Assembly: GCF_003334405.1 (NCBI RefSeq)
Contig: NZ_QOWM01000001.1
Direction: 5' to 3' (one strand)
Length of the DNA: 64,000 nucleotides
From: Escherichia coli
GTDB taxonomy: Bacteria > Pseudomonadota > Gammaproteobacteria > Enterobacterales > Enterobacteriaceae
Shown here piece by piece: positions 15,427 to 29,730 of the stretch (position 1 is the stretch's first letter; the number at the start of each line of letters is the position of its first letter). The position numbers and the translations under genes were made by a program. The notes under the pieces were generated by a model. It was not told the DNA's origin. It worked only from the letters and a program-made list of their open reading frames with translations, and did no database searches.

Positions 15427-16274
15427 CAGGGTTCCTGACGTAAATAAATAGCCCGATAACACATACTCACCAGCACCGCACCGCCGATAATATTACCCAG
15501 CATCACCGGGAGCAGATTGGCGGTAATAAAATGGCTGACCGTCAGTGCCGGAAAATTGTCTGCGCTACTGTGCGCCAGCTGCCAGAAGGGGGGAGGGGCG
15601 AAATGGCGAATGGCAATGGCGAACGGAATCACAAACAAATTGGCGATACAGTGCTCAAAGCCACTGGCGACAAACAGGGTGATGGGCAAAATCATGGCGA
15701 CGATTTTGTCGCATAACGAACGCCCGCAATAACTCATCCACAGCGCCAGGCAAACCATCAGATTGCACATAATGCCGAGGCTGACAGATTCAGTAAATGT
15801 ATGATGCATTTTGCCCTCGGCGCAGTGTAAAACCGCGACTCCCCACATCGCGTTTTCACTCATCACCAGCCCGGAAAACCAGATTAACAAACTGAAACAG
15901 GCAATACCTGCCAGATTACCGCAGGCCACCAGAAGTGCGTTAATCAGCCAAGTTCGCCAACTAATAACGCCCCGACTTTTTGCCATCACCGTCATTACCG
16001 ACGAGGTGAACAGGCTGGTGCCGCAAACCGCCAGCAAAATAAAGCCGAGTGTAAAGCAAAGGCCGCCCACCAGATGGGTTAATGCCTGTGAAGACGGGGC
16101 ATCGGCGATAACGGAAAGGTAAAAAGTAAATCCGATCGCCATAAACACGCCAGCGGACATCGCCATTAAAAAGACCGACACTTTACTGCGGGCAATTTTA
16201 TGGGCGGCAATCCGTTCAGCGATTGCCGCTTTTCTGGCGCTCAACTGCAAGTCGAAAGAGAGTTTGTTTCTCAT
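15426..16274 (-). CDS. focB: Formate channel FocB (FNT family)
   Basis: 282-aa membrane protein, last gene of the hyf locus. Confidence 0.85.
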   Translation of the reverse strand: MRNKLSFDLQLSARKAAIAERIAAHKIARSKVSVFLMAMSAGVFMAIGFTFYLSVIADAPSSQALTHLVGGLCFTLGFILLAVCGTSLFTSSVMTVMAKSRGVISWRTWLINALLVACGNLAGIACFSLLIWFSGLVMSENAMWGVAVLHCAEGKMHHTFTESVSLGIMCNLMVCLALWMSYCGRSLCDKIVAMILPITLFVASGFEHCIANLFVIPFAIAIRHFAPPPFWQLAHSSADNFPALTVSHFITANLLPVMLGNIIGGAVLVSMCYRAIYLRQEP

Positions 16275-16295
16275 GCATACTCCTGCAAAAGCAGA

Positions 16296-18308
16296 TTACA
16301 ACACCTCGCGAACCGAGATCCCCAGCCGCTGCATTCGTGACAGCAGCGTGGTGCGCTTCATCCCTAATCGCGTCGCTGCGCCACGGGGCCCGGCAACAAT
16401 GCCATTGGTTTCTCGCAATACCTGAACAATGCGCTGACGTTCTTCTTCGTCATTCTCTGGCGTCGTCGGGTGCAGTAACTGCGCCATTGAACTGCGAAGC
16501 GCTGAATCTTCATTTAGCGTCGGCAGTAAACGGCTTTGTCGGACATTTAGATGTAAATTCAGACTGTTACCACGAGTCAACAGTACCGCCCGCTCAATCA
16601 CGTTTTCCAGCTCGCGCACGTTGCCCGGCCAATCCCACGACATCAACTGGCGTAGTGCCTCGGTCGGGATGGCGTCAATTGCGCGATTCATATGGCGCGC
16701 CATTTTTTGCGTGAAATGTTTTGCTAAAAGAGGGATATCTTCCGGACGGTCGCGTAGCGGCGGCAATTCCAGTGGGAAGACATTCAGGCGATAAAAGAGA
16801 TCGCTGCGAAACTGGCGATCTTCAACCATTTGCCACAAATCACGGTTGGTGGCGGCAATGACTCTGACATTCACCGGGATCGTTCTACTCCCGCCGAGAC
16901 GCTCAATCTCCCGCTCCTGCAATACGCGCAGCAGTTTAGGCTGAAGTTCTAACGGCAGATCGCCAATTTCATCGAGAAACAACGTGCCGCCATCGGCAAT
17001 TTCAAAACGACCACGATGGGTATTAATCGCACCAGTAAACGCCCCTTTGTCATGACCGAATAACTCACTTTCCAGAAGACTGGCGGGGATGGCAGCGCAG
17101 TTGATTTTGACCAGCGGCTTGTCGCGTCGCGGGCTAAGTTGATGGATCGCTCTGGCGATCACCTCTTTGCCAGTTCCGGTTTCACCACAAATCAACACCG
17201 TACTGTCGCTCTTCGCCACAATATCTACCTGCTGGAGCAGGTCTTCCATTGCCTGGCTTTGATAGATAATGTCACCGATGCCCAGATTCGAAAGGAGCTG
17301 CTCGCTAAGCTGGTGGTTTTCTTGCTGCAAACTTTCCTGCAAATCGGTCATGCTACGCCAGGCATCGGCATTGCCAACGGCAATAGCGATGCGATCGGCT
17401 ATGTGTTGTAGTAGCTGGCAGTTTTCCTCACTAAAGAGAGTGGAAGAGGTATGCGCCAGCAACAATGCACCCGGTGTATGGTTGCCAAAGGTAAGCGGTA
17501 TAAGGAGCGCAGATTCGCAGCCGTTAGATGCAAGTAAGAGTAATAACGGGTCGCGTTGCCAGAGAAACAGATCATCTGCACGGTGCGTCAAGGTCGGTTG
17601 TCGGGTTTGTAGCGTTTGTGTCAGCAATACACTTTCGCCAGGCATACAGCGTGGCAGACACGCACAATGTGAGGCAGAAAGATCGCTGCACCACAGGCTG
17701 AACTTCTCGTTCTTTCGATGATCGCCCAGTACCATACTGACTGAAGCCAGACCGAAAAAATGATGGATCTCACGAGCGACGTCAGCGATCAGATCGTCGA
17801 GATCAAGATGTGACAGCACTGCATTAGTAATATCAACCAGTACCCGATGATGATCGCGATCTTTCTCCAGCAAACGCAGCGCCACCTGCTGTTCTTCATC
17901 ATTGAGCCATGATTGCAGAACCGGGGTGATTATCCGCGCCAGCCAGTTAAACAGTGTGCAATCCTGGGAAGTAAAACGACTGCCGTGGGTGCGAATAAAG
18001 CGTAGCTCCGCCATTCCACTACTGCCGAGAAGGACGGCGTGACGCGAATAATCGACCATCTCGCCCTGATACTCTGTTGTTGCCGTCACATCGCTGCCAT
18101 CATCATGGTAGCGGTAATAGAAGTTGCTTTTGAGAACATGCAGTTCAATAAGTTGTACCGGGCTGAACGGCGGCGGCAGCGGGATGAAGGCGCGTAATAA
18201 AGACGCCTTGCCGTGTTTCTGTGCTAACCGCTCCGCGAGCATTCCGTTTACCGCTTCAATTGTTATTCCTTGTGGCGGGGCAAACATCGCCTCGTCTGAC
18301 ATAGCCAT
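16296..18308 (-). CDS. hyfR: Sigma-54-dependent transcriptional activator HyfR (FhlA-like)
   Basis: AAA+ sigma-54 activator motifs GETGTGKE (Walker A), [15 protein letters not shown] (GAFTGA loop); C-terminal helix-turn-helix. Start is either of the two adjacent Met codons (18308 or 18311). Confidence 0.85.
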
Positions 18309-18337
18309 CAACAGTCCTTATTAATGAGAAATCCTTC

Positions 18338-18751
18338 TCACGCAATTTTTCTGGCCATCAGATAGATGGCCGGTTCCTGCACAATTTCATCCAACAGATG
18401 AATGAATTGAATGCTACGCGCCTGCCACACAGACGTCGCGTCATCCGCCAGTGGCGCGAATGCCCGGGTCAACAGGGCGGTGTGGCTGGCGTCAATAACA
18501 ATCTCACCAAAAGTCATCACCCCCAGCATCTTACGTCGGGCTTGCTCCTCTTCGACCAGTGCAAGCCAATCTTCGTATTCCGTCAGTGGGCAGCGGAAGG
18601 CGACATTCAGACAATCAATCACGCCAACGTGATGGCCGATAGCTAGCGAGTAATACATTACCTGAGAGCTGTGTTCCGGCATCTCGTCGCTACTGGCGAC
18701 AAACTTTTTTCGCAGCGTCCAGAAAACAATTTCCCCGCACTCTTCAGTCAT
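18338..18751 (-). CDS. hyfJ: Hydrogenase-4 component HyfJ (HycH-like maturation/assembly factor)
   Basis: 137 aa from the ATG at 18749-18751 ([11 protein letters not shown]), which overlaps the hyfI stop; the track ORF is extended upstream. Confidence 0.8.
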
Positions 18752-19502
18752 GTAACCCCCGGAGTACGCGAAAGAGTTGCTGAACGATACTATTGAGACG
18801 TGGATCGTCGGCATCGCGCAACCAGGTGTTAACCCGATTTCCTGTAGGATCGTCGCTTAAATGGCGCAGGAGCCGATCGCAAATTTCTCGCCCCTGACGA
18901 TAGCCCGCCAGCCGCCGCGCTTCTCGCTCAATGGCGATACGCTGTGATGGCGGGATCTGCGGCCACAACGGTTGCATAGTCACCCCGGTGGGATCGCGAT
19001 AATCCACAGCGTGAATCTTCTGTTGCAGCAAACCGAGCGCCACGGCGAAACCGTGAATGGTGGCGGCCGGTGTTGGCGGGCAGCCGGGGATCCAAACATC
19101 AATGGGGACAATGGTGTCGCTACCGCCCCAGACGCTGTAGAGATCGTGGAAAATACCGCCGCCGACACCGCACGCGCCGTAGGAAACACAAATTTTATGA
19201 TCGGGGGCAGACTCATACGCCCGAAGTGCAGGCATACGCATCGCCCGGGTGACTGCGCCAGTAAATAACAAAATATCGGCGTGACGCGGTGATGAAACAA
19301 CCTTAATGCCAAAACGTTCTGCGTCGAATACTGGTGTAATGGCAGCAAAAATTTCGATTTCACAGGCGTTGCAGCCGCCGCAATCGACGCGATAAACGTA
19401 AGCCGAGCGACGGATATCCTGTAGCAAATGCCGCTTCATCTTTTGCGTTTGCTCGTCCAGCGTGATGGGCTGGCTGACATGTTGTGTAAGCACTGGACTC
19501 AT
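18744..19502 (-). CDS. hyfI: Hydrogenase-4 small subunit HyfI (NuoB-like, [4Fe-4S])
   Basis: 252 aa; NuoB-type cysteine motifs (CGGCNAC, GCPP). Confidence 0.9.
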
Positions 19503-20044
19503 AGCTGCTCCTTAGCCACCAGCAGTACATCTGTATCGTCGTTGATCAGCGTCGCGCGTTGTTTGCATTCCGGGCAGACGCTCGCTTGCGCCCACAACAT
19601 TTCGCGGTTTTGTGGCGCATTTTGTTGCTGTGCTAACAATTCAGCAGCCAGTGCGATGGTTTTTTGCGGGGCAAACGGGCGTTCGCAACGGCTGCAACGT
19701 TGTAGATGGAACGTCGCGCGGGTATAGAGATCGGCTTTATTGGTGACGGTCAGTTCAAAGTTATTGGTAAGCTGGATGGCTCTGGTCGGGCACACTTCTT
19801 CACAACGTCCGCAGTAAATACAACGCCCCAGATAGAGCTGCCAGGTGCGCGAATTTTGCTGGTCGTCGGTCTGGATAGTCAGCGCATTTGCCGGACAAGC
19901 ACAGGCGCAGGCACCGCAGGCAATACATTGGCTGGGCATCAGGTCCGGTTTTCCGCGAAAGCCAGGGCTGACCTCCAGTGGCGCGAAGGGATATTTCACC
20001 GTCGCGGTTCCGGCGCGCATAATAGTTTTCAGTAACTTCAGCAT
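19499..20044 (-). CDS. hyfH: Hydrogenase-4 ferredoxin subunit HyfH (2x[4Fe-4S], NuoI-like)
   Basis: 181 aa; two CxxCxxCxxxCP motifs ([24 protein letters not shown]). Confidence 0.9.
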
Positions 20045-20053
20045 CTTCTGTCC

Positions 20054-21721
20054 TTACTTCAGCGGCGAACGGTTACGATCAATGCCGTAGCGTTCGATCT
20101 CTTTATACGGCACGGTTTTTGACTGGCGCTTGCGCACATCTACCAGCGTCACACGGTCGGTACAGGAGTAGCAGGGATCAAGGCTACCGATAATCAGCGG
20201 TGCGTCAGAAACGGTATTGCCGCGCAGCATGTAACGCAACACCGGCCAGTTGGCGTAGGTGGCGGCACGGCAGCGCCAGCGGAACAATTTTTGGTTATCA
20301 CCGAGCATGCTCCAGTGCACGTCTTCACCGCGTGGCGCTTCAACAAAGCCCAGCGCGAATGCGTGAGGTTTATAGCTAAAGCCTTCGGTCAGCAGTGGGG
20401 TATCCGGCATGTTGTCGAGGGCAAATTCCAGCATTGCCAGCGAATCAAACGTCTCTTTGACACGGACCATCACGCGGGAGAAAACATCGCCGCCGGTAAA
20501 GGTAAACAGTGTTTTTGGAATATTGCCGTAGTCGGCGTAGGGGTGATCAAAGCGCAAATCACGGGCGATTTGTCGGTCGAGAATGCCAATGCCCTGAGTG
20601 CGTTGTTCCATATTCGGCGTAGCAAGCAGCATCTCTACCAGCTCCGACACGTCGGCGCGCATCTCGCGCACCAGTTTCAGCGTTTGCAGACGTTGCTCTT
20701 TGAGAATATCGCGGCGAACACCACCAATCAGATTCAGACCGTAGGTTTTACGCGACCCGATCAGCAATTCCGCCATCGTCATCGACTTTTCCCGCACGCG
20801 GAAAAATTGCATAAAGCCGGTATCAAAACCAACGAAATGGCAGGAGAGGCCAAGGTTAAGCAAATGACTGTGTAGCCGTTCGACTTCCAGCAGAATCGAG
20901 CGAATAGTATGTGCTCGTTGCGGCACCTCAATCCCCAGTGCATTTTCAACCGAATTGGTATAGGCCACACTGTGGGCAAAACCGCAAATCCCACACACGC
21001 GGTCCGATAAGAAGGTCACTTCGTTGTAGCCCATCCGCGTTTCTGCCAGTTTCTCCATGCCGCGATGGACATAAAACAGGCGGTAATCAGCATCGACAAT
21101 TTGCTCGCCATCCACAAACAAGCGGAAGTGACCCGGTTCATCGGAGGTGATATGCAGCGGGCCGACAGGGATCACCCGCGCATCGCTGTTGCCCTCATTG
21201 ATAAACGGATACGTTTCGGAATCAGTCGTCGGTTCAGGGCGCAGTCGATAATCCATCGCATCTTTGCGCAGCGGATGCATATCTTCCGGCCAGTCATCGG
21301 GCAACACCAGGCGACGCTGATCCGGCAGGCCAACCGGAATCAGCCCGTACATATCGCGAATTTCTCGCTCGCCCCAGACCGCGGCAGGGACGCGCGGTGT
21401 GACTGACGGAAACTCCCGACTGTCGGCATCGACCAGCGCCTTCACCACAATCCAGCATTTTTCGGCCCCTTCCATTGAAAGGGCATAATAAACCGCGTAA
21501 TGACCGTTAAGTGTCCGCTCGTCGTTGCCAAACAGGACCGGAAGCCAGCCATCATGTTGATAATAAAGATACTGTACAACGTCAGGCAGCAGATTGATTT
21601 TCACCGTAATGGTGACCTGTTCAGGCGTTTGTCGCTCTTCATCCAGCACCGCGCCGGGGAACTGCGTTTTCAGGGCGGCGAGAATCGCTTCGCCACGATT
21701 TGACGATGAATTAACGTTCAC
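20054..21721 (-). CDS. hyfG: Hydrogenase-4 [NiFe] large subunit HyfG
   Basis: N-terminal [11 protein letters not shown] and C-terminal DPCYSCTDR Ni-Fe ligand motifs; start placed at the GTG at 21719-21721 ([10 protein letters not shown]), overlapping the hyfF 3' end. Confidence 0.9.
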
Positions 21722-23291
21722 TGTGTTTCTCCGAAACAGATGCGGTGCCTGAAGGCAAAAAATCATGCCAGGTGCTACGTTGTGCAGGCAGATCGTGCGT
21801 CCCTGAGAGGACTATAGTGGAAGCGCCCGCCAGGATCCTGATGACAGGTTGTGGAATATGCGTTCCCATCGCCAGCATCATGACCAGCAGAATCACCATT
21901 GGCGAGGTGGTCAACCAGCCGAGATCACCCCGGTTAACGGCCTGCGGCGGTTTCGCCATTAACACCCGCGCAGCCATCCGTACCAGGCCCGCCAGCACCA
22001 GCGTTAACAGCAATAACAGCAGGACGATAATCAGCAGGTGATTACGTGCCAGTCCGGCGGTAATGGTCATAAATTCGCTAAGAAAAATGTTGAAGGGCGG
22101 CATCCCTGCCAGCGCCAGCGCACCGCCGCCAAACAGCACGGCGGTAAATGGCATGATTTTGAGCATCCCACAGACGACGTTGAGATCGCGCGTGCCGTAC
22201 TTGAGCAGTACATTGCCGGAACCGCAGAACAGCAGCGTTTTTGCCAGACTGTGGTTTAAGATGTGCAGCAGCGCGGCAAAAATTCCCAGCGGCCCGCCAA
22301 TGCCTAGCTCCACCGCGACCAGCCCCATGTTCTCCACGCTGGAGTACGCCAGCAGACGCTTAATGTCCCGCTGTACCAGAATGAAAAATGCCGCCACGGC
22401 AACCGACAACATGCCGAAGATGAGCAACAACCGGTTGGGGAAATCGCTGCCGATGGCTTGGCAAATAATGATGTAATAGCGAATCAGCACCAACAGCGCG
22501 CAGTTCAGCAATACGGCGGAGAGCAGGGCGCTGACCGGACTCGGCGCTTCACTGTGAGCATCCGGCAGCCAGGCGTGCATGGGAAATAGCCCGGTTTTGG
22601 TACCAAAGCCAATTAGCAAAAACACAAAGGCCAACAGCATTAATGTTGGGTCAAGCAAGGACGATTGCTTAAGAACCTCGCTCCAGAATATCGCCATTTC
22701 TGCCTGCGGCATAACGCTGGCGGCGTTGGCGTATACCAGCACGGTACCGAACAGACCAAAAGCGACACCAACAGTACAAATAATGATGTACTTCCATGCA
22801 GCTTCCAGCGATGAACGCTGACCGTAAATGCCTACCAGAAACGCCGAGCTTAAGGTGGTGGCTTCGATCGCCGCCCACATCACAATCAGGTTATTGCTGG
22901 TAACAACCAGCAGCATGGTGAACAAAAACAGATGGAAGAAACCGTAGTAATCGCACAGCGTAACGGGTGAAAGCTCGCCGTGTGCCACTTCATGACGCAT
23001 GTAGCCAATCGAGTAAATACCGGTGAGAAAGCCAATCACACCAAGAATGGCGAGGAACAAACCGCCCAGACCATCAATATGAAGCCACAGTCCCGCAGCG
23101 AATATTTCTCCTGCATCAGCGGCAGTTTGGACCACCCAGAGTGCCAGAATCAGCAGCAGTGTGATCCCTAAGCTATGTAATACGGTCACCGTGCGAGTCG
23201 CAGAAAGTCTCCGTTTCCGGCAGGCAAAACAGAGCAGCGAAAAAAGCAGCGGCGTGAGCAGGAGTAAAGCGAACATCACAGAATAACTCAT
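21711..23291 (-). CDS. hyfF: Hydrogenase-4 membrane subunit HyfF (NuoL/M/N antiporter-like)
   Basis: 526-aa polytopic protein of the complex I antiporter-like family. Confidence 0.9.
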
Positions 23292-23295
23292 CTCA

Positions 23296-23946
23296 TTATC
23301 CCTTCAGCGCGGTCAAGTTGTTCACGTCCAGCGTGCCGTGGGTACGCCATATTTTTCTTGCCAGTAACACCATCACAATGACGGCGAAGATGGCGTCGGT
23401 AGCGATACCTATTTCCACCAGTTCCGGTGCTCGCCAGGCAAGAAGCGCCAGCACCAGATGGGAGCCGTTTTCCATCAGGCAGTAACCAAAAATTTGCCGC
23501 AGGATATTGCGCTGGCTGACAATGCACAGCAGGCCAAGCAGAAAATGACCTAACGCTACCGCCAGCGCCGGTTTCAGCCCGGTAGCCATCGGTAGCTTCA
23601 CGGGCTGAACGACAAATGCGCAAAGCAGGACAATTAACGCCGCGAGCAGTGCCATCATTGCCGGACCGAATAACGCTTTTTCCGGGATGTTCTGGGGAAT
23701 ATTTCGTGCAGCGTAAGTCATGATTAACGGTACCAGCAGCACTTTGGTGATAAAGGCGCTGGCGGACCAGATCAGCAGTTGCTCTGCGGCGAACAGGCAC
23801 GAGAGAGTGGCGAAAATAGACACCAGCACCAGTGACTGGCAGGCGTAAAATCCGCATGACAGGCGATAGCTTTTGACGCTAATCACAAACAGCGATGTCA
23901 GCATCATCAGTCCCGCCAGATTATTTACGATCATAGAACCGGTCAT
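23296..23946 (-). CDS. hyfE: Hydrogenase-4 membrane subunit HyfE
   Basis: 216-aa integral membrane protein. Confidence 0.85.
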
Positions 23947-23957
23947 TCATCATCTCC

Positions 23958-25397
23958 TTACTGCAACCAGGTCGCGGCGATTACGCTGGAAATCAGCGAC
24001 ATCACAATCAGTACAATCAACACCAGGCGCATTGATCCTGGCAGCGGTGCGGCATCGGCGACGGCCTCGCTCGGTTTGCCAGGCACAACGCGACCAAACC
24101 AGCGAATAAACCAGGCGAAACTGGCGACCGATTCAATCATCAGAAGAATCATGGCGGGCAGCAGGATCCAGTACTCCACTGACAACGCAAAACCGGCAGC
24201 AAACAGCGGGAATTTACTGAAGAAGCCGTTGAACGGCGGCACGCCGGTAATCGCCAGCGCTGCCACGCAGAAACCCACGCCTGGCAACGGCAGGGTGTGC
24301 AATACGCCACGCAGACGCGGCAACAAGCGCGTGCCGCAGCTGTAACTCAGCGCACCTGCTACAAGGAAAAACAGGCTTTTAGCGAACGCGTGGTTGACGA
24401 TGTAGGCGATGCTGCCCTCCAGCGCCAGCCGCGAGCCGAAGATGGAGAGCGACAAGCCGAAGAACATCCAGCCAAGTTGAGTGATGGTCGACCAGGCTAG
24501 CAACCGCTTCATATCCTGCTGTGGCAAATACATCAGAAAGCCATAAAGAATGGTGACCAGTGCCATGACCATGCCAACGCCGCCAATCACATGCGGGATA
24601 TTGCCGCCGTCGATAATAGCGCGGGCAAAAATGTAAACGCCCACTTTCACCATCGATGCGGCGTGGAGATAGGCGCTGATCGGTGTTGGCGCTTCCATTG
24701 CGTCCGGTAGCCACGCTTGCATCGGTAGCTGGGCCGATTTCCCCCACGCGGCAAACAGGATGCCGCCATAAACCAGATAACGTGCGTCGCCGTGTAACTC
24801 GCTCATCGCGCTAAGCGCAAACGTTCCGGTCTGCAAAAACAGCGTGGCGGCGGCAAGATACAACCCCAACGAGCCGATATGAGTGATAAGTAACGCTTTT
24901 AGTGCTGAACGCTGCGCTTTATCGCTCTGGTAATAACTGATCAACGCCCAGGAGCAGCCGCCTGTAATTTCAAAAAACAACAACTGACCGAGCAGCGTCG
25001 AGGAGAGTACCAGTCCCGCCATCGCGCCGATAAACACCAGTAAAAATGCGTAATAACGATTCGTGCCGTTATGCGGGTGTTCGCGATTTTTATCCGTCAG
25101 ATAACCCGTGGAGTAGATCGTGACCAGCAAACCGAGAAACACCACCACAAACAGAATCAGCGTACTCACGCGATCAATGACCAGGCCAAACAACGCCACA
25201 TCCCCCACGTTGACCAACGTCAACGTGACGGCAACTTTATCGGCCTGATAAAACGCGGAGATCAGTGACAACATGCACAGCGTGGTCAGCGCGGCGAACA
25301 AAACCCCCCATTCGGCGGCCCGACGTTGTGGCGAAAACGAAACGACCAGTGCGCCGATAAAAGGCAGCAATAACGTCGTCAGAGCAAGATTTTCCAT
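23958..25397 (-). CDS. hyfD: Hydrogenase-4 membrane subunit HyfD (antiporter-like)
   Basis: 479-aa polytopic NuoM/N-like protein. Confidence 0.9.
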   Translation of the reverse strand: MENLALTTLLLPFIGALVVSFSPQRRAAEWGVLFAALTTLCMLSLISAFYQADKVAVTLTLVNVGDVALFGLVIDRVSTLILFVVVFLGLLVTIYSTGYLTDKNREHPHNGTNRYYAFLLVFIGAMAGLVLSSTLLGQLLFFEITGGCSWALISYYQSDKAQRSALKALLITHIGSLGLYLAAATLFLQTGTFALSAMSELHGDARYLVYGGILFAAWGKSAQLPMQAWLPDAMEAPTPISAYLHAASMVKVGVYIFARAIIDGGNIPHVIGGVGMVMALVTILYGFLMYLPQQDMKRLLAWSTITQLGWMFFGLSLSIFGSRLALEGSIAYIVNHAFAKSLFFLVAGALSYSCGTRLLPRLRGVLHTLPLPGVGFCVAALAITGVPPFNGFFSKFPLFAAGFALSVEYWILLPAMILLMIESVASFAWFIRWFGRVVPGKPSEAVADAAPLPGSMRLVLIVLIVMSLISSVIAATWLQ

Positions 25398-25413
25398 ATT
25401 CCGTCAGTGCTCC

Positions 25414-26361
25414 TTACAGACCGGTTAACCAGAAGACCCATGCAAGCGCAGCAAGGCTGAAGCCAAGCCAGGTCACATGGTGAATGAGTAAAAAACGCCC
25501 GCGTGCCAGCGTGTTTTCTGCGATTGAGGCCAGTACAAAAATCAGCAAAACCTTGAGCAGCGTAACGACAAGTGAAGTCAGCAGGCAGGCGAGAGAAAGT
25601 TCTTGCGCGCGCCCAAAGGGCAGAAACAGGGCCACAAACAGTGATGCCATCACGACCTGTTTCAGCCCCAGCCCCCATTTCGCTAGCGCCAGCCCGGCAC
25701 CGGAATATTCGGTCAGCGGGCCTTCCTGTAATTCCTGTTCTGCTTCAGCAACATCAAAGGGAATTTTTCCCATCTCAATGAAGCAGGCAAAACCACAGGC
25801 CAGTAACGCCAGTACGGTGGTTAGCGGCGAGTTCCAGCCCATCGCCAGCGTATTGCTGATCATCTCGATATGCGTGGAACCTGCTATCAGCGCCAATACC
25901 AGCAGTGAGAGAATAAGCATTGGTTCGACCAGAATGCCGAGCGTCAACTCGCGACTGGCACCGACTCCCGCAAACGGACTTCCGGTATCCAGCCCGGAAA
26001 GAGCAAAGAAAAAACGAAACAGGGCAAGAAGATAGATAAGGGTGATCAGATCGCCGCCGCCCGCAAAAGGGGAAACGGTAATAAACAGTGGTAAGGCCAT
26101 CGCCAGCACCAGCATGCTGCTGATTAATACCCACGGCATCAGGCGGAACATCAGACCTGAAGATGTCGGCGCAACTTCCTGGCGTTTAAACAGTTTGTGG
26201 ATATCGCGATAATCCTGCCAGATCCCCGGCCCGCGGCGGGAGTGCATACGCGCGCGTATCTGCCGGGAAATACCCGTAAAAAGTGGGGTTAGCATCAGCA
26301 GAATCACGGCCTGTGCTAACGCAAAAATGACCAGATATCCGTCGCAAAGAGTTTGTCTCAT
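25414..26361 (-). CDS. hyfC: Hydrogenase-4 membrane subunit HyfC (NuoH-like)
   Basis: 315 aa from the ATG at 26359-26361 (MRQTLCDGYLVIF); the track ORF is seven codons longer and overlaps hyfB. Confidence 0.9.
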   Translation of the reverse strand: MRQTLCDGYLVIFALAQAVILLMLTPLFTGISRQIRARMHSRRGPGIWQDYRDIHKLFKRQEVAPTSSGLMFRLMPWVLISSMLVLAMALPLFITVSPFAGGGDLITLIYLLALFRFFFALSGLDTGSPFAGVGASRELTLGILVEPMLILSLLVLALIAGSTHIEMISNTLAMGWNSPLTTVLALLACGFACFIEMGKIPFDVAEAEQELQEGPLTEYSGAGLALAKWGLGLKQVVMASLFVALFLPFGRAQELSLACLLTSLVVTLLKVLLIFVLASIAENTLARGRFLLIHHVTWLGFSLAALAWVFWLTGL

Positions 26362-26371
26362 GGTGATTTCC

Positions 26372-28390
26372 TTAGACGGCAATAGCGATTAGCAGCACAA
26401 CCAGTGCGGCGACCACATACAGGCAATAGAGACGAAAGTCGCCGCTTTGCAGATGCTGTATTTCTTTGGCCAGCCGTTGGGTGGCGCTCACGATGGGGCG
26501 GATCACCCGCTCATCCCAGAAGGGTTCTGTGCTCTGAGCCCTGGCGGTGACGTGCGCAAGACCTTTATTTAGCCTCAGCGTAGGGTCGAGCTGTTGTCGT
26601 AGACGAAATAGCGCAGAAAAGACCACACGCAGCGGCTGCATCACGCCATTGCCTGACGGGGCCATCGCATTTTCCCAGCCGTAGCCGCATGCCCAGGCAT
26701 CTCCTGTGCGACGAAACGCTGCGCGGCGCGAACGACACCACAGCCAGTAAAGGCCAGGCAGCAAAGGCATCGCCAGTAGTAACAGCAACAGTAATGAGGG
26801 GGTGACCTGTGTATGAAACGTGCCGGGTACAAGTGCTATTCCGCTGGCGACAGTGGCGGGAGGGGTATTGGTAAACGCATGGGCAATATGCATTATCTTC
26901 GGTGCCAGCCAACTGGCACTAAGCGCAATTAATACGCAGAGTGCCGCGAGCAGTAGCATGGCGACGATCATCGTATTTGGCACTTCCTGTGCCTCTTCAG
27001 CGTGTGTACTGCGCGGCGCACCACAGAAAGTAATACCGTACATTTTTACGAAGCACATTACTGCCAGCCCACCAGTGACTGCCAGCATTACCATAGCAAT
27101 AGGACCCGCAAGTTGTAGCGCTACGGCTTCCACACGACTTAGTGAGAACAGCGACTGCCAGGTGTACCATTCGCTGATAAAACCATTCAGCGGAGGAATG
27201 GCTGATATCGCGAGGCAACCAATCAGGCATGCTGCGGCTGTCCACGGCATCCGTTTCGCTAGTGCCCCCATTTTTTCCATGTCGTGGGTATGCAAACGCG
27301 AAATAATCGCTCCCGCGCCGAGAAATAGCAGCCCTTTGAACAGCGCATGGTTGAGCAGATGAAACAGTGCGCCGAGCAGTCCAACCACGGTGAGCAGCGG
27401 GTCGTGCAGTGACAGACCGACCATCGCCACACCGACTGCCAGCAAAATAATGCCGACGTTTTCGACGGTACTCCAGGCCAGCAGCCGTTTGATATCCTGT
27501 TCCGCCAGCGCATATAGCACGCCCAGGAGCGCGGAGATTGCGCCGATCGCCATCACCAGAATGCCCCACCACAGAGGCAAACCCGTTTGCGCCAGCAGAT
27601 CCATCGCTACTTTCAGGATGCCGAAAATACCTATTTTGACCATTACGCCAGACATCAACGCCGAAGCGTGCGATGGTGCGGCAGGGTGAGCGCGCGGCAA
27701 CCAGCTGTGCAACGGCATCATCCCGGCTTTCGCGCCAAAACCGAAAAAGGCCAGCAGGAACACCGCCGACGCCAGCCCCGGAGAAAGTGAAAGCGTGCGG
27801 AAACTGGCAAAATCGAGGCTGCCGCTTTCGCGCCCCATCAGCAAGAAGGCGATCATTATCAGCACCGATCCGGCGTGGGCGATAAAAAAGTAGAGCATGC
27901 CAGCGTTGATCGACGTTTTATCCTGCCTGGCAATGACCAGAAACCAGGAAGACAGCGACATCATTTCAAACAGCACGATGAACCAAAAAGCGTTGTCCAT
28001 CACCAGCAGGGCAACCATCGATGCGATGAAAATATTCATAAAGAAGCCCATCGCCGCCGCGCCTTTGCCCTCGTATTCGCGCATATAAGTCAATGAATAG
28101 AGAGAACAAACCACCACCAGCAAGGAGATAACCAGCACCATAAATGCCGAGAGGCTATCCATTCGCAGGGTTAAATCGGCAAATTCAAAAGGGGTGGCAA
28201 AACGGGCGACTAAAGTTACACCAGCATGTAATTGCGTAATTCCGCTGATGATGCCAATCACGCCGCCCACCAGCGATGTGATGCCGGAAAGCTTAATAGC
28301 CAGTCTGTCCAGACCGAGTAAAAACAGCGAAGCCAGACTAGCAAACAGATAGAGAATCAGCGACCAGGTTAATAATTGCAGGGCATCCAT
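26372..28390 (-). CDS. hyfB: Hydrogenase-4 membrane subunit HyfB (NuoL-like antiporter-like)
   Basis: 672-aa polytopic protein. Confidence 0.9.
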   Translation of the reverse strand: MDALQLLTWSLILYLFASLASLFLLGLDRLAIKLSGITSLVGGVIGIISGITQLHAGVTLVARFATPFEFADLTLRMDSLSAFMVLVISLLVVVCSLYSLTYMREYEGKGAAAMGFFMNIFIASMVALLVMDNAFWFIVLFEMMSLSSWFLVIARQDKTSINAGMLYFFIAHAGSVLIMIAFLLMGRESGSLDFASFRTLSLSPGLASAVFLLAFFGFGAKAGMMPLHSWLPRAHPAAPSHASALMSGVMVKIGIFGILKVAMDLLAQTGLPLWWGILVMAIGAISALLGVLYALAEQDIKRLLAWSTVENVGIILLAVGVAMVGLSLHDPLLTVVGLLGALFHLLNHALFKGLLFLGAGAIISRLHTHDMEKMGALAKRMPWTAAACLIGCLAISAIPPLNGFISEWYTWQSLFSLSRVEAVALQLAGPIAMVMLAVTGGLAVMCFVKMYGITFCGAPRSTHAEEAQEVPNTMIVAMLLLAALCVLIALSASWLAPKIMHIAHAFTNTPPATVASGIALVPGTFHTQVTPSLLLLLLLAMPLLPGLYWLWCRSRRAAFRRTGDAWACGYGWENAMAPSGNGVMQPLRVVFSALFRLRQQLDPTLRLNKGLAHVTARAQSTEPFWDERVIRPIVSATQRLAKEIQHLQSGDFRLYCLYVVAALVVLLIAIAV

Positions 28391-29007
28391 TAGCGTTGCT
28401 CCTGAGTGAGGGAAAGGGGATCCTCCCCGCCATTGGCAAACCAGCTTGCGGCAAGGCGCTGTTTTTCTTTCATCTGACGTTGCAGGCTATCACCGGTGAT
28501 CAGCCGTAACGCCTGATTCGGGCAAGCGCGAACGCAGGCCGGACCTTCTGGCAAGAAATCACACAGGTCGCATTTCACCGCGACGGTCTGGACACCAGGT
28601 TCCCAGCGCAGCAAAGCATGTTGTGTTGGCGCGTTTTCTTCGCCGTCTTTGAGTGAGCCTTCAGCCTGAAAAACATATTGCGCATGGGCATTCACCGGAC
28701 GGCTTCCTGAAGCGCTGATTGCGCCAAATGGGCAGACCACGGCGCAAAGCTTGCAGCCAATACAGAGGCTTTCGTTGAGTTGGATCGCATCATCCCTCTG
28801 AGAGATGGCATTGACCGGGCAGACCTGCAGGCAAGGGGCTTCCTCACAGTGATGACACACGACAGGGGCAGTGATTGTTGACGTCTTCGCCAGGGCCAGG
28901 CGCGGGTGTTGCTGTAAACCTTGCGTTTTATGCACGTCCGAACAGGCAGCGAGACAGGTATTACATCCTGTACACCACAGTGGTTCGGCCACCACAAAGC
29001 GGTTCAT
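28390..29007 (-). CDS. hyfA: Hydrogenase-4 ferredoxin-type subunit HyfA (multi-[4Fe-4S])
   Basis: 205 aa from the ATG at 29005-29007 (MNRFVVAEPLWCTGCNTCLAAC); four Cys clusters. Confidence 0.9.
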   Translation of the reverse strand: MNRFVVAEPLWCTGCNTCLAACSDVHKTQGLQQHPRLALAKTSTITAPVVCHHCEEAPCLQVCPVNAISQRDDAIQLNESLCIGCKLCAVVCPFGAISASGSRPVNAHAQYVFQAEGSLKDGEENAPTQHALLRWEPGVQTVAVKCDLCDFLPEGPACVRACPNQALRLITGDSLQRQMKEKQRLAASWFANGGEDPLSLTQEQR

Positions 29008-29047
29008 GTCGGCTCCTTGAAAATGATATGAAACATTGCATTTCATA

Positions 29048-29065
29048 TTGCATAAAGGATGCCAT
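29048..29065 (-). promoter_or_regulatory. Candidate sigma-54 (-24/-12) promoter of the hyf operon
   Basis: Reverse strand reads TGGCATCCTTTATGCA, with GG and GC at the canonical 12-bp spacing (consensus TGGCAC-N5-TTGCA), about 40 bp upstream of hyfA and consistent with the sigma-54 activator HyfR encoded in the locus. Confidence 0.5.
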
Positions 29066-29259
29066 TCTGATTAACTCAATATATTCAATAAGTTATGTAT
29101 TAACTGGATTCTGAACGGTACAAAAATGATGGTCATTAACGTTCAGCAAAAAATGGATTCGACACCCGTGTCGCAGGGGAAAGCGAGAATGTGATCTTGA
29201 TCACGAGAAGTGAGGTATGCTGGCCGCAAGCGCAGCCAGCACGGAATGGAGCAAAGTAA

Positions 29260-29730
29260 TCAGGCGTGTTCTTTCAGCCAGTTCAGCACAACGTCGTGGT
29301 GATTGCTGGTTTTGAAATCGTCAAAGACATGTTCGATTTTGCCATCAGCGTCAATCAGGAAGCTGATGCGATGAATGCCATCGTAGGTTTTGCCCATGAA
29401 GGACTTTTCACCCCAGACGCCGAATTGTTCGCACACCTGGTGGTCCTCATCAGACAGGAGCGTAAAGTTAAGCAGCTCTTTTTCCGCAAAACGGGAGAGT
29501 TTTTCGGGTTTATCGGTGCTGATACCCAGCACATCAACGCCCGCTTTTTTCAACTCATCCATGTTATCGCGTAAGCCGCAGGCCTGTACGGTACAGCCGG
29601 GGGTCATGGCTTTCGGGTAGAAATAAACCAGAACACGCTGTCCCTGGAAGTCGGTCAAATTAACTTGTTCTCCGTCTTGATCCGGCAAGCTAAATTTCGG
29701 TGCGATATCACCGGCTTTCAGTGGATTCAT
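29260..29730 (-). CDS. bcp: Thiol peroxidase Bcp (peroxiredoxin)
   Basis: 156 aa; peroxidatic-Cys motif AMTPGCTVQACG. Confidence 0.95.
   Translation of the reverse strand: MNPLKAGDIAPKFSLPDQDGEQVNLTDFQGQRVLVYFYPKAMTPGCTVQACGLRDNMDELKKAGVDVLGISTDKPEKLSRFAEKELLNFTLLSDEDHQVCEQFGVWGEKSFMGKTYDGIHRISFLIDADGKIEHVFDDFKTSNHHDVVLNWLKEHA

Follow-up and report, generated by a model that had tools for sequence, protein, structure and literature searches.

The sigma-54 promoter of the hydrogenase-4 operon in Escherichia coli: a background-level motif in a conserved control region

Upstream of hyfA, the first gene of the Escherichia coli operon for hydrogenase-4, lies a short sequence that resembles a sigma-54 -24/-12 promoter element, and the operon itself encodes HyfR, a sigma-54 enhancer-binding protein. 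The question raised by this locus is whether such a match is the promoter from which the operon is transcribed or one of those that chance alone would place in the window (as we call the whole stretch of DNA that was analysed, 64,000 nt), and, if it is the promoter, through which neighbouring elements it might be made to work.

The element and the bcp-hyfA spacer

The preliminary description of this locus had placed a sigma-54 element at 29048-29065, which is one base longer on each side than the sequence TGGCATCCTTTATGCA that we find on the minus strand at 29049-29064. Its GG (29063-29062) and GC (29051-29050) stand in the register of the consensus TGGCACG-N4-TTGCW, 10 bp apart as in the context TGGCAC-N5-TTGCW, so the spacing was rightly called canonical. 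Addition of the 5' A gives a 17-mer form of the element that spans 29049-29065. Read along the minus strand, TTAATCAGAA is followed by TGGCATCCTTTATGCA, then by ATATGAAATGCAATGTTTCATATCATTTTCAAGGAGCCGAC and then by the first codons of hyfA (ATG AAC CGC), with 41 nt between the 3' end of the element and the ATG at 29007 on the same strand, close to the 40 bp given earlier.

Table 1. Features of the hyfA control region and of its operon-encoded activator, in window coordinates
Feature	Position	Strand	Basis or remark
hyfR, operon-encoded sigma-54 enhancer-binding protein, 670 aa	16296-18308	-	NCBIfam match; annotated HyfR in K-12
hyfA, first gene of hyfABCDEFGHIJR-focB	28390-29007	-	RefSeq annotation of identical DNA; ORF list
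hyfA ribosome-binding site AAGGAG	29013-29018	-	read in the sequence; GGAGCC part invariant in alignment A1
Transcription start, predicted here and published as mapped	29037-29038	-	30-31 nt upstream of the hyfA ATG
Sigma-54 -24/-12 promoter element TGGCATCCTTTATGCA	29049-29064	-	exact sequence match
IHF-like site TAACTTATTGAAT	29083-29095	-	reverse complement of consensus WATCAANNNNTTR, 1 mismatch
Conserved block TGACCATCATTTTTGT / TGACCATCAYTTTTGT	29120-29135	-	about -90 from the start; between dyad and IHF-like site
Candidate HyfR/FhlA upstream activating sequence, dyad CGACAC-GG-GTGTCG	29160-29173	-	perfect 6+6 inverted repeat
CRP-like (or FNR-like) palindrome cGTGATCAAGATCACA	29190-29205	-	9/10 to TGTGA-N6-TCACA; about -160 from the start

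The operon extends down to focB at 15426, in the order hyfA, hyfB to hyfJ, hyfR, focB, and the gene on the upstream side of the spacer is bcp, whose stop lies at 29260. The bcp-hyfA spacer of 252 nt is the same, base for base, as that of E. coli K-12 MG1655; over the hyf region as a whole, 1 of 13,707 nt differs from MG1655. Since the spacer is K-12 sequence, experimental data obtained with K-12 apply here. A simple scan of 28950-29320 found no sigma-70-like promoter where 0.8 would be expected, in keeping with the earlier remark that no sigma-70 pair of comparable quality is nearby, and the leader and spacer gave no Rfam match at E <= 1.

Several smaller features share this stretch. An in-frame ATG at 29046 on the minus strand precedes the annotated start of hyfA by 39 nt and opens a 218-aa ORF in the program-made list; since its place is upstream of the predicted start of transcription and a ribosome-binding site is lacking, the annotated start at 29007 stands. 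The -12 region and the start site are covered by a perfect 8-bp inverted repeat, ATATGAAA-N7-TTTCATAT (29026-29048, minus strand), which we considered as an operator and rejected, the repeat being specific to E. coli and one of its kind appearing in 17% of simulations; it is probably due to chance. Directly after bcp is a hairpin (29218-29241, minus strand) with 10-nt arms, a 4-nt loop and, in E. coli, no T-run; the equivalent place in Citrobacter holds a canonical GC hairpin with a T-run. This hairpin is the only part of the spacer that strains devoid of hyf have in common with the window.

Taken as a motif, the element is unremarkable. The loose pattern TGGCA-N7-TGCW has 3 matches in the 64-kb window against 2.0 expected. 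With hyfA left out, the intergenic ChIP-seq sites that Bonocora et al. 2015 give for sigma-54 number 41, and a matrix derived from them gives TGGCATCCTTTATGCA 13.65 bits, where the training sites have 8.8-21.8 bits. The element thus comes third in the window, and set against the real sites, of which it is 37th of 42, it is in the lower range; a site as good is present in 96 of 100 simulated composition-matched 64-kb sequences, with a mean of about three. With the independent Barrios matrix (186 promoters, taken from PMC7658346), the score is 11.94 bits and the rank ninth in the window, where about nine such matches are expected. The -12 region is off consensus, with TATGCA instead of TTGCA. 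Only when the search is restricted to 80 nt on one strand upstream of hyfA does the element reach P of about 0.002-0.006. We have accordingly dropped any claim to significance by sequence alone, the loose pattern and both matrices being not beyond chance across the window. With the motif alone at background level, the case for a promoter must be carried by its position, its conservation, its partner elements, the presence of HyfR and published binding.

Four sigma-54-like matches equal to or better than the promoter lie within hyf coding sequence, all on the minus strand (16471-16487, 17869-17884, 22231-22247 and 24561-24576). The first of these (ATGGCGCAGTTACTGCA) belongs to the 3' end of hyfR and precedes the focB ATG by about 185-200 nt. 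The ChIP-seq tables in the main text of PMC4591121 contain none of the four, and because their number is close to the chance prediction and they are outside that main-text list, we treat them as chance matches.

Conservation and the upstream partner elements

A scan for relatives of HyfA, with one genome per species, returned 45 loci of which 43 were usable, and each was scored by its best forward-strand matrix match within 300 bp upstream of the start, with a threshold of 12 bits. A strong forward-strand sigma-54 element precedes the HyfA-like start in 26 of the 43, at 38-83 bp from the start codon in 25 loci and at 136 bp in one (Uliginosibacterium, L033). The controls reached 12 bits in no locus, neither on the reverse strand (0/43) nor in coding sequence (0/43), and the median best scores were 14.4 bits for the forward upstream region as against 2.7 for the reverse strand and 4.0 for coding sequence. 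The genera covered include Citrobacter, Kosakonia, Atlantibacter, Sodalis, Morganella, Providencia, Dickeya, Pectobacterium, Photobacterium, some Burkholderiales and others. In about a quarter of the loci the 300 bp upstream contain no sigma-54 element (L025-L028, L030-L032, L034, L036-L038 and L046), and among them are Serratia, Pseudescherichia, Siccibacter and some Alphaproteobacteria; here the HyfA homologue presumably either stands further down its operon or is under different regulation.

At closer range, alignment A1 sets the bcp-hyfA spacer of E. coli beside the syntenic ones of four Citrobacter and two Kosakonia; its element columns T-G-G-C-A and T-T-x-T-G-C are invariant, and variation falls between them (TCCTT, CAGCT, CATCT). 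Critical bases that are fixed around a spacer that is free to change are the pattern to be expected under selection for recognition by sigma-54. Among E. coli alleles, those that diverge most included, there is no variation in the dyad, the TGACCATCA block, the IHF-like site or the -12 region.

That the locus encodes its own sigma-54 activator, as the preliminary description had stated, is clear from HyfR (16296-18308), whose GAFTGA motif is found at residue 423 (window 17028-17045). The best NCBIfam match of HyfR is to the FhlA family (E 1e-192), and its 642 bits are under the equivalog cutoff of 830 bits, as would be expected of a paralogue.

If HyfR or FhlA activates this promoter from upstream, the dyad at 29160-29173 would be the most likely place, and it answers to the inverted-repeat activator site for which the preliminary description had proposed a scan there. 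It consists of two YGWCR pentamers with 4 bp between them, centred 103 bp upstream of the GG and at about -129 from the start, and it shares its pentamers with the FhlA site CGACATCATCGACA in the K-12 hyc-hyp spacer. Across the 32 loci with a sigma-54 element, CGACA/TGTCG pentamers are about fivefold enriched upstream. In 29 of these 32 loci the pattern CGWCR-N4-YGHCG is present in the 220 nt that precede the -24 element, where its density is 4.69 per kb as compared with 0.072 per kb in other parts of the loci, an enrichment that is optimistic because the pattern was defined post hoc, after the sequences had been seen. Independent of the choice of pattern is the distance from dyad to GG, which is fixed at 101-103 bp in Escherichia, Citrobacter, Kosakonia and Atlantibacter. 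We also considered the dyad as a terminator of bcp, since a scan reports a 5-bp stem with a weak T-run at this place; that reading is unlikely, given that the dyad keeps a constant distance from the -24 element in different genera.

The published 13-site FhlA matrix gives the dyad only 5.6 bits, which is not significant, and for this reason its occupation by HyfR, FhlA or both is something that we infer. Over the whole spacer the best match to the same matrix has 9.6 bits, under the 95th percentile of random pieces (10.6 bits), so the matrix identifies no upstream activating sequence here; this non-significant match coincides with the CRP-like palindrome.

Between the dyad and the promoter lies the IHF-like site, with its centre 26 bp upstream of the GG and at about -51 from the start. 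With the consensus WATCAANNNNTTR fixed before inspection, at most one mismatch allowed and the search confined to 70 nt upstream of the -24 element, 24 of the 32 loci have such a site, whose distance to the GG is mostly 25-26 or 36-38 bp; the density is 13.8 per kb, compared with 0.75 per kb in the remaining DNA of the loci. Its AAC...TTGA is invariant in A1 and within E. coli. This regularity suggests that IHF would bind at 29083-29095 and bend the DNA there.

Two further blocks lie upstream. The one at 29120-29135 is invariant at 15 of 16 positions in Escherichia, Citrobacter and Kosakonia and at all of them within E. coli, where it includes the palindrome AATGA-CCA-TCATT; one possible role for it is that of a second activator site of lesser strength. 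The CRP-like palindrome is conserved in A1 and becomes a perfect TGTGA-N6-TCACA in all four Citrobacter loci examined (4/4). The window holds 4 CRP-like matches against 1.8 expected, which is not significant by itself, and we retain the palindrome as a conserved block with a putative assignment to CRP.

Published binding, the proposed mechanism and its rivals

This stretch of DNA has also been recovered by direct study of sigma-54. In the ChIP-seq survey of Bonocora et al. 2015 (PMC4591121, Table 1), site OS23 was assigned to hyfA with the motif ATGGCATCCTTTATGCA, to which the 17-mer of the window is identical. It has an in vivo enrichment of 16 and carries the flag "C" for sites confirmed experimentally in EcoCyc (PMC4591121). 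Its predicted start, by a rule that counts 19 bp downstream from the motif centre, is 31 nt from hyfA (PMC4591121), which in window coordinates is 29038, the very position near which the preliminary description had expected transcription to begin. In vitro, the gSELEX data of Shimada et al. 2021 (PMC8743547) have a peak in the bcp/hyfA spacer that reaches 92% with RpoN holoenzyme alone and becomes the highest of all, at 100%, with RpoN holoenzyme and NtrC, which places it first or second among the peaks of the genome.

The neighbouring position 29037 corresponds to column A229 of alignment A1, which is invariant. Skibinski and co-workers reportedly found in 2002 that hyf expression depends on sigma-54 and is activated by FhlA and HyfR, and HyfR is said, from the same work, to bind the hyfA promoter region; the start that they reportedly mapped by primer extension, 30 bp upstream of hyfA, would be 29037. 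The mapped start and the dependence on rpoN have as their basis the EcoCyc flag quoted in PMC4591121 and what Skibinski et al. 2002 are reported to have found. Among relatives, rpoN and fhlA mutants of Proteus mirabilis show lower hyf promoter activity (PMC7658346), and deletion of hyfR in Pectobacterium atrosepticum leaves almost none of its FHL-2 activity (PMC7384014). FhlA has likewise been reported as a regulator of hyf (PMC7658346), and formate, low pH and anaerobiosis, acting via FhlA or HyfR, have been reported as inducers in E. coli and its relatives (PMC7658346; PMC7384014).

These lines of evidence leave us nearly certain that the element is PhyfA, the sigma-54 promoter of the hydrogenase-4 operon hyfABCDEFGHIJR-focB, and that it works as follows. 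Sigma-54 RNA polymerase would occupy the GG (-24) and GC (-12) of 29049-29064 as a closed complex that is unable to start transcription alone. A hexameric AAA+ activator, HyfR and/or its paralogue FhlA, would bind upstream at about 130 bp from the start, most likely at the dyad, and the intervening DNA would be bent, in all likelihood by IHF at its candidate site, bringing the activator to the closed complex. The GAFTGA loop would then contact sigma-54, and ATP hydrolysis would open the promoter, with transcription beginning at about 29037-29038. What is shown is the sequence with its position and conservation, HyfR with its GAFTGA motif and, from published work, the binding of sigma-54 in vivo and in vitro; which protein binds which of the upstream blocks, IHF and CRP included, is the part of this scheme that we infer.

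The motif statistics invite a plainer reading, in which the match is fortuitous and hyf owes its transcripts to a sigma-70 promoter within the spacer or to read-through from bcp. Between 3 and 9 equally good matches are expected per 64 kb, equal or better ones do lie in hyf coding sequence outside the published main-text ChIP list, and the hairpin after bcp has no T-run in E. coli. A chance match, however, would not be expected to keep its position and critical bases across genera, nor to be accompanied by a conserved dyad of the activator-site type and an IHF-like partner; the spacer yielded no sigma-70-like promoter in our scan, and binding of sigma-54 to this exact sequence is published from both ChIP-seq (PMC4591121) and SELEX (PMC8743547). 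We regard a fortuitous match as exceedingly improbable.

A different doubt concerns use rather than identity. The site could be a true sigma-54 promoter that is poised and essentially silent, a decaying remnant that fires only upon artificial overproduction of HyfR, and hyf is said to have been called a silent operon by Self and colleagues in 2004. Wild-type E. coli is reported to express the operon poorly (PMC7384014), the whole locus is missing from 1,129 of 5,426 E. coli genomes, and the O157:H7 lineage carries a change of GG to GA at the -24 position. A remnant in decay sits poorly with critical bases, a dyad and an IHF-like site that show no variation among the remaining E. coli alleles examined and are conserved in other genera too, and with an operon in which 12 of 12 genes are intact; we consider it very improbable that the promoter is nothing more than this. 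Silence of this kind is in any case compatible with activation by the proposed mechanism, since it limits when the promoter operates and not how.

The variation among strains deserves its own description. The strains without hyf are found among complete E. coli genomes (ST131, for example), and in them bcp is followed by yfgO. The block that is present or absent runs from about 15390 to 29210 and takes in the whole hyf locus with its control region: similarity to hyf-less strains extends for about 49 nt past the bcp stop and ends just before the CRP-like block is reached, which makes the entire hyf control region part of the indel.

In O157:H7 strain 611 (L049:216-218, equivalent to 29062) the element reads CTGACATCCTTTATGCA, with GG changed to GA at the near-invariant -24 dinucleotide. 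The exact 41-mer around this change is found in 139 complete E. coli genomes, nearly all of them labelled O157:H7, and the change lowers the matrix score by 4.7-7.5 bits; the 12 hyf genes of strain 611 are all annotated as intact despite it (12/12). We found no mention of this substitution in the hyf promoter of O157:H7 in the literature that we searched. It is quite possible, though we lean slightly away from it, that the change is a natural knockout of the hyf promoter. If it abolishes binding of sigma-54, there would be no transcription of hydrogenase-4 from this promoter in O157:H7, and this would be a recent loss at the level of the promoter, alongside the absence of the whole locus in about a fifth of E. 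coli genomes.

PhyfA is, then, a real and ordinary promoter that is already known, catalogued in EcoCyc and confirmed by ChIP, and it has for that reason little weight as a discovery. The preliminary description is fully supported, though it was silent on the prior characterisation of the promoter and on the unremarkable statistics of its motif. The case is of use as a calibration example, a correct call from a motif that is statistically like background and that becomes convincing only through its context. The view of the hyf control region across genera is also cleaner than that from E. coli alone, with its fixed distance of 101-103 bp from dyad to GG and its conserved IHF-like site, and could guide activation of the poorly expressed hydrogenase-4 of E. 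coli.

Comparison with known systems

Among the closest known systems are the FhlA-dependent promoters of the formate regulon, those of hycA, hypA, fdhF and hydN. They have in common with hyf a -24/-12 element with a leader of about 20-40 nt, upstream pentamers of the TGTCG/CGACA type about 9 bp apart, and activators that are paralogues of one another (FhlA and HyfR). The hyf control region differs from them in a dyad that scores poorly with the 13-site FhlA matrix (the 5.6 bits given above) and has a GC-rich spacer (CGGG) where theirs are A/T-rich, as well as in the TATGCA at -12, an activator of its own and a CRP-like palindrome further upstream.

The promoters of the hyf/FHL-2 systems of Proteus mirabilis and Pectobacterium atrosepticum likewise place a sigma-54 element ahead of the hyfA homologue and have, in addition, a dyad and an IHF-like site. 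The distance from dyad to GG is 58-71 bp in Providencia and Morganella as against 103 bp in E. coli. The system is well expressed in Proteus mirabilis and Pectobacterium atrosepticum, which is reportedly not the case in E. coli (PMC7384014).

With PhyfA of E. coli K-12, as recorded in EcoCyc and as OS23 by Bonocora et al. 2015, the comparison is one of identity. The spacer, the 17-mer and the 31-nt distance from start to ATG are the same, the single difference from MG1655 in the 13,707 nt of the hyf region leaves the promoter untouched, and the element described here and the K-12 promoter are the same object.
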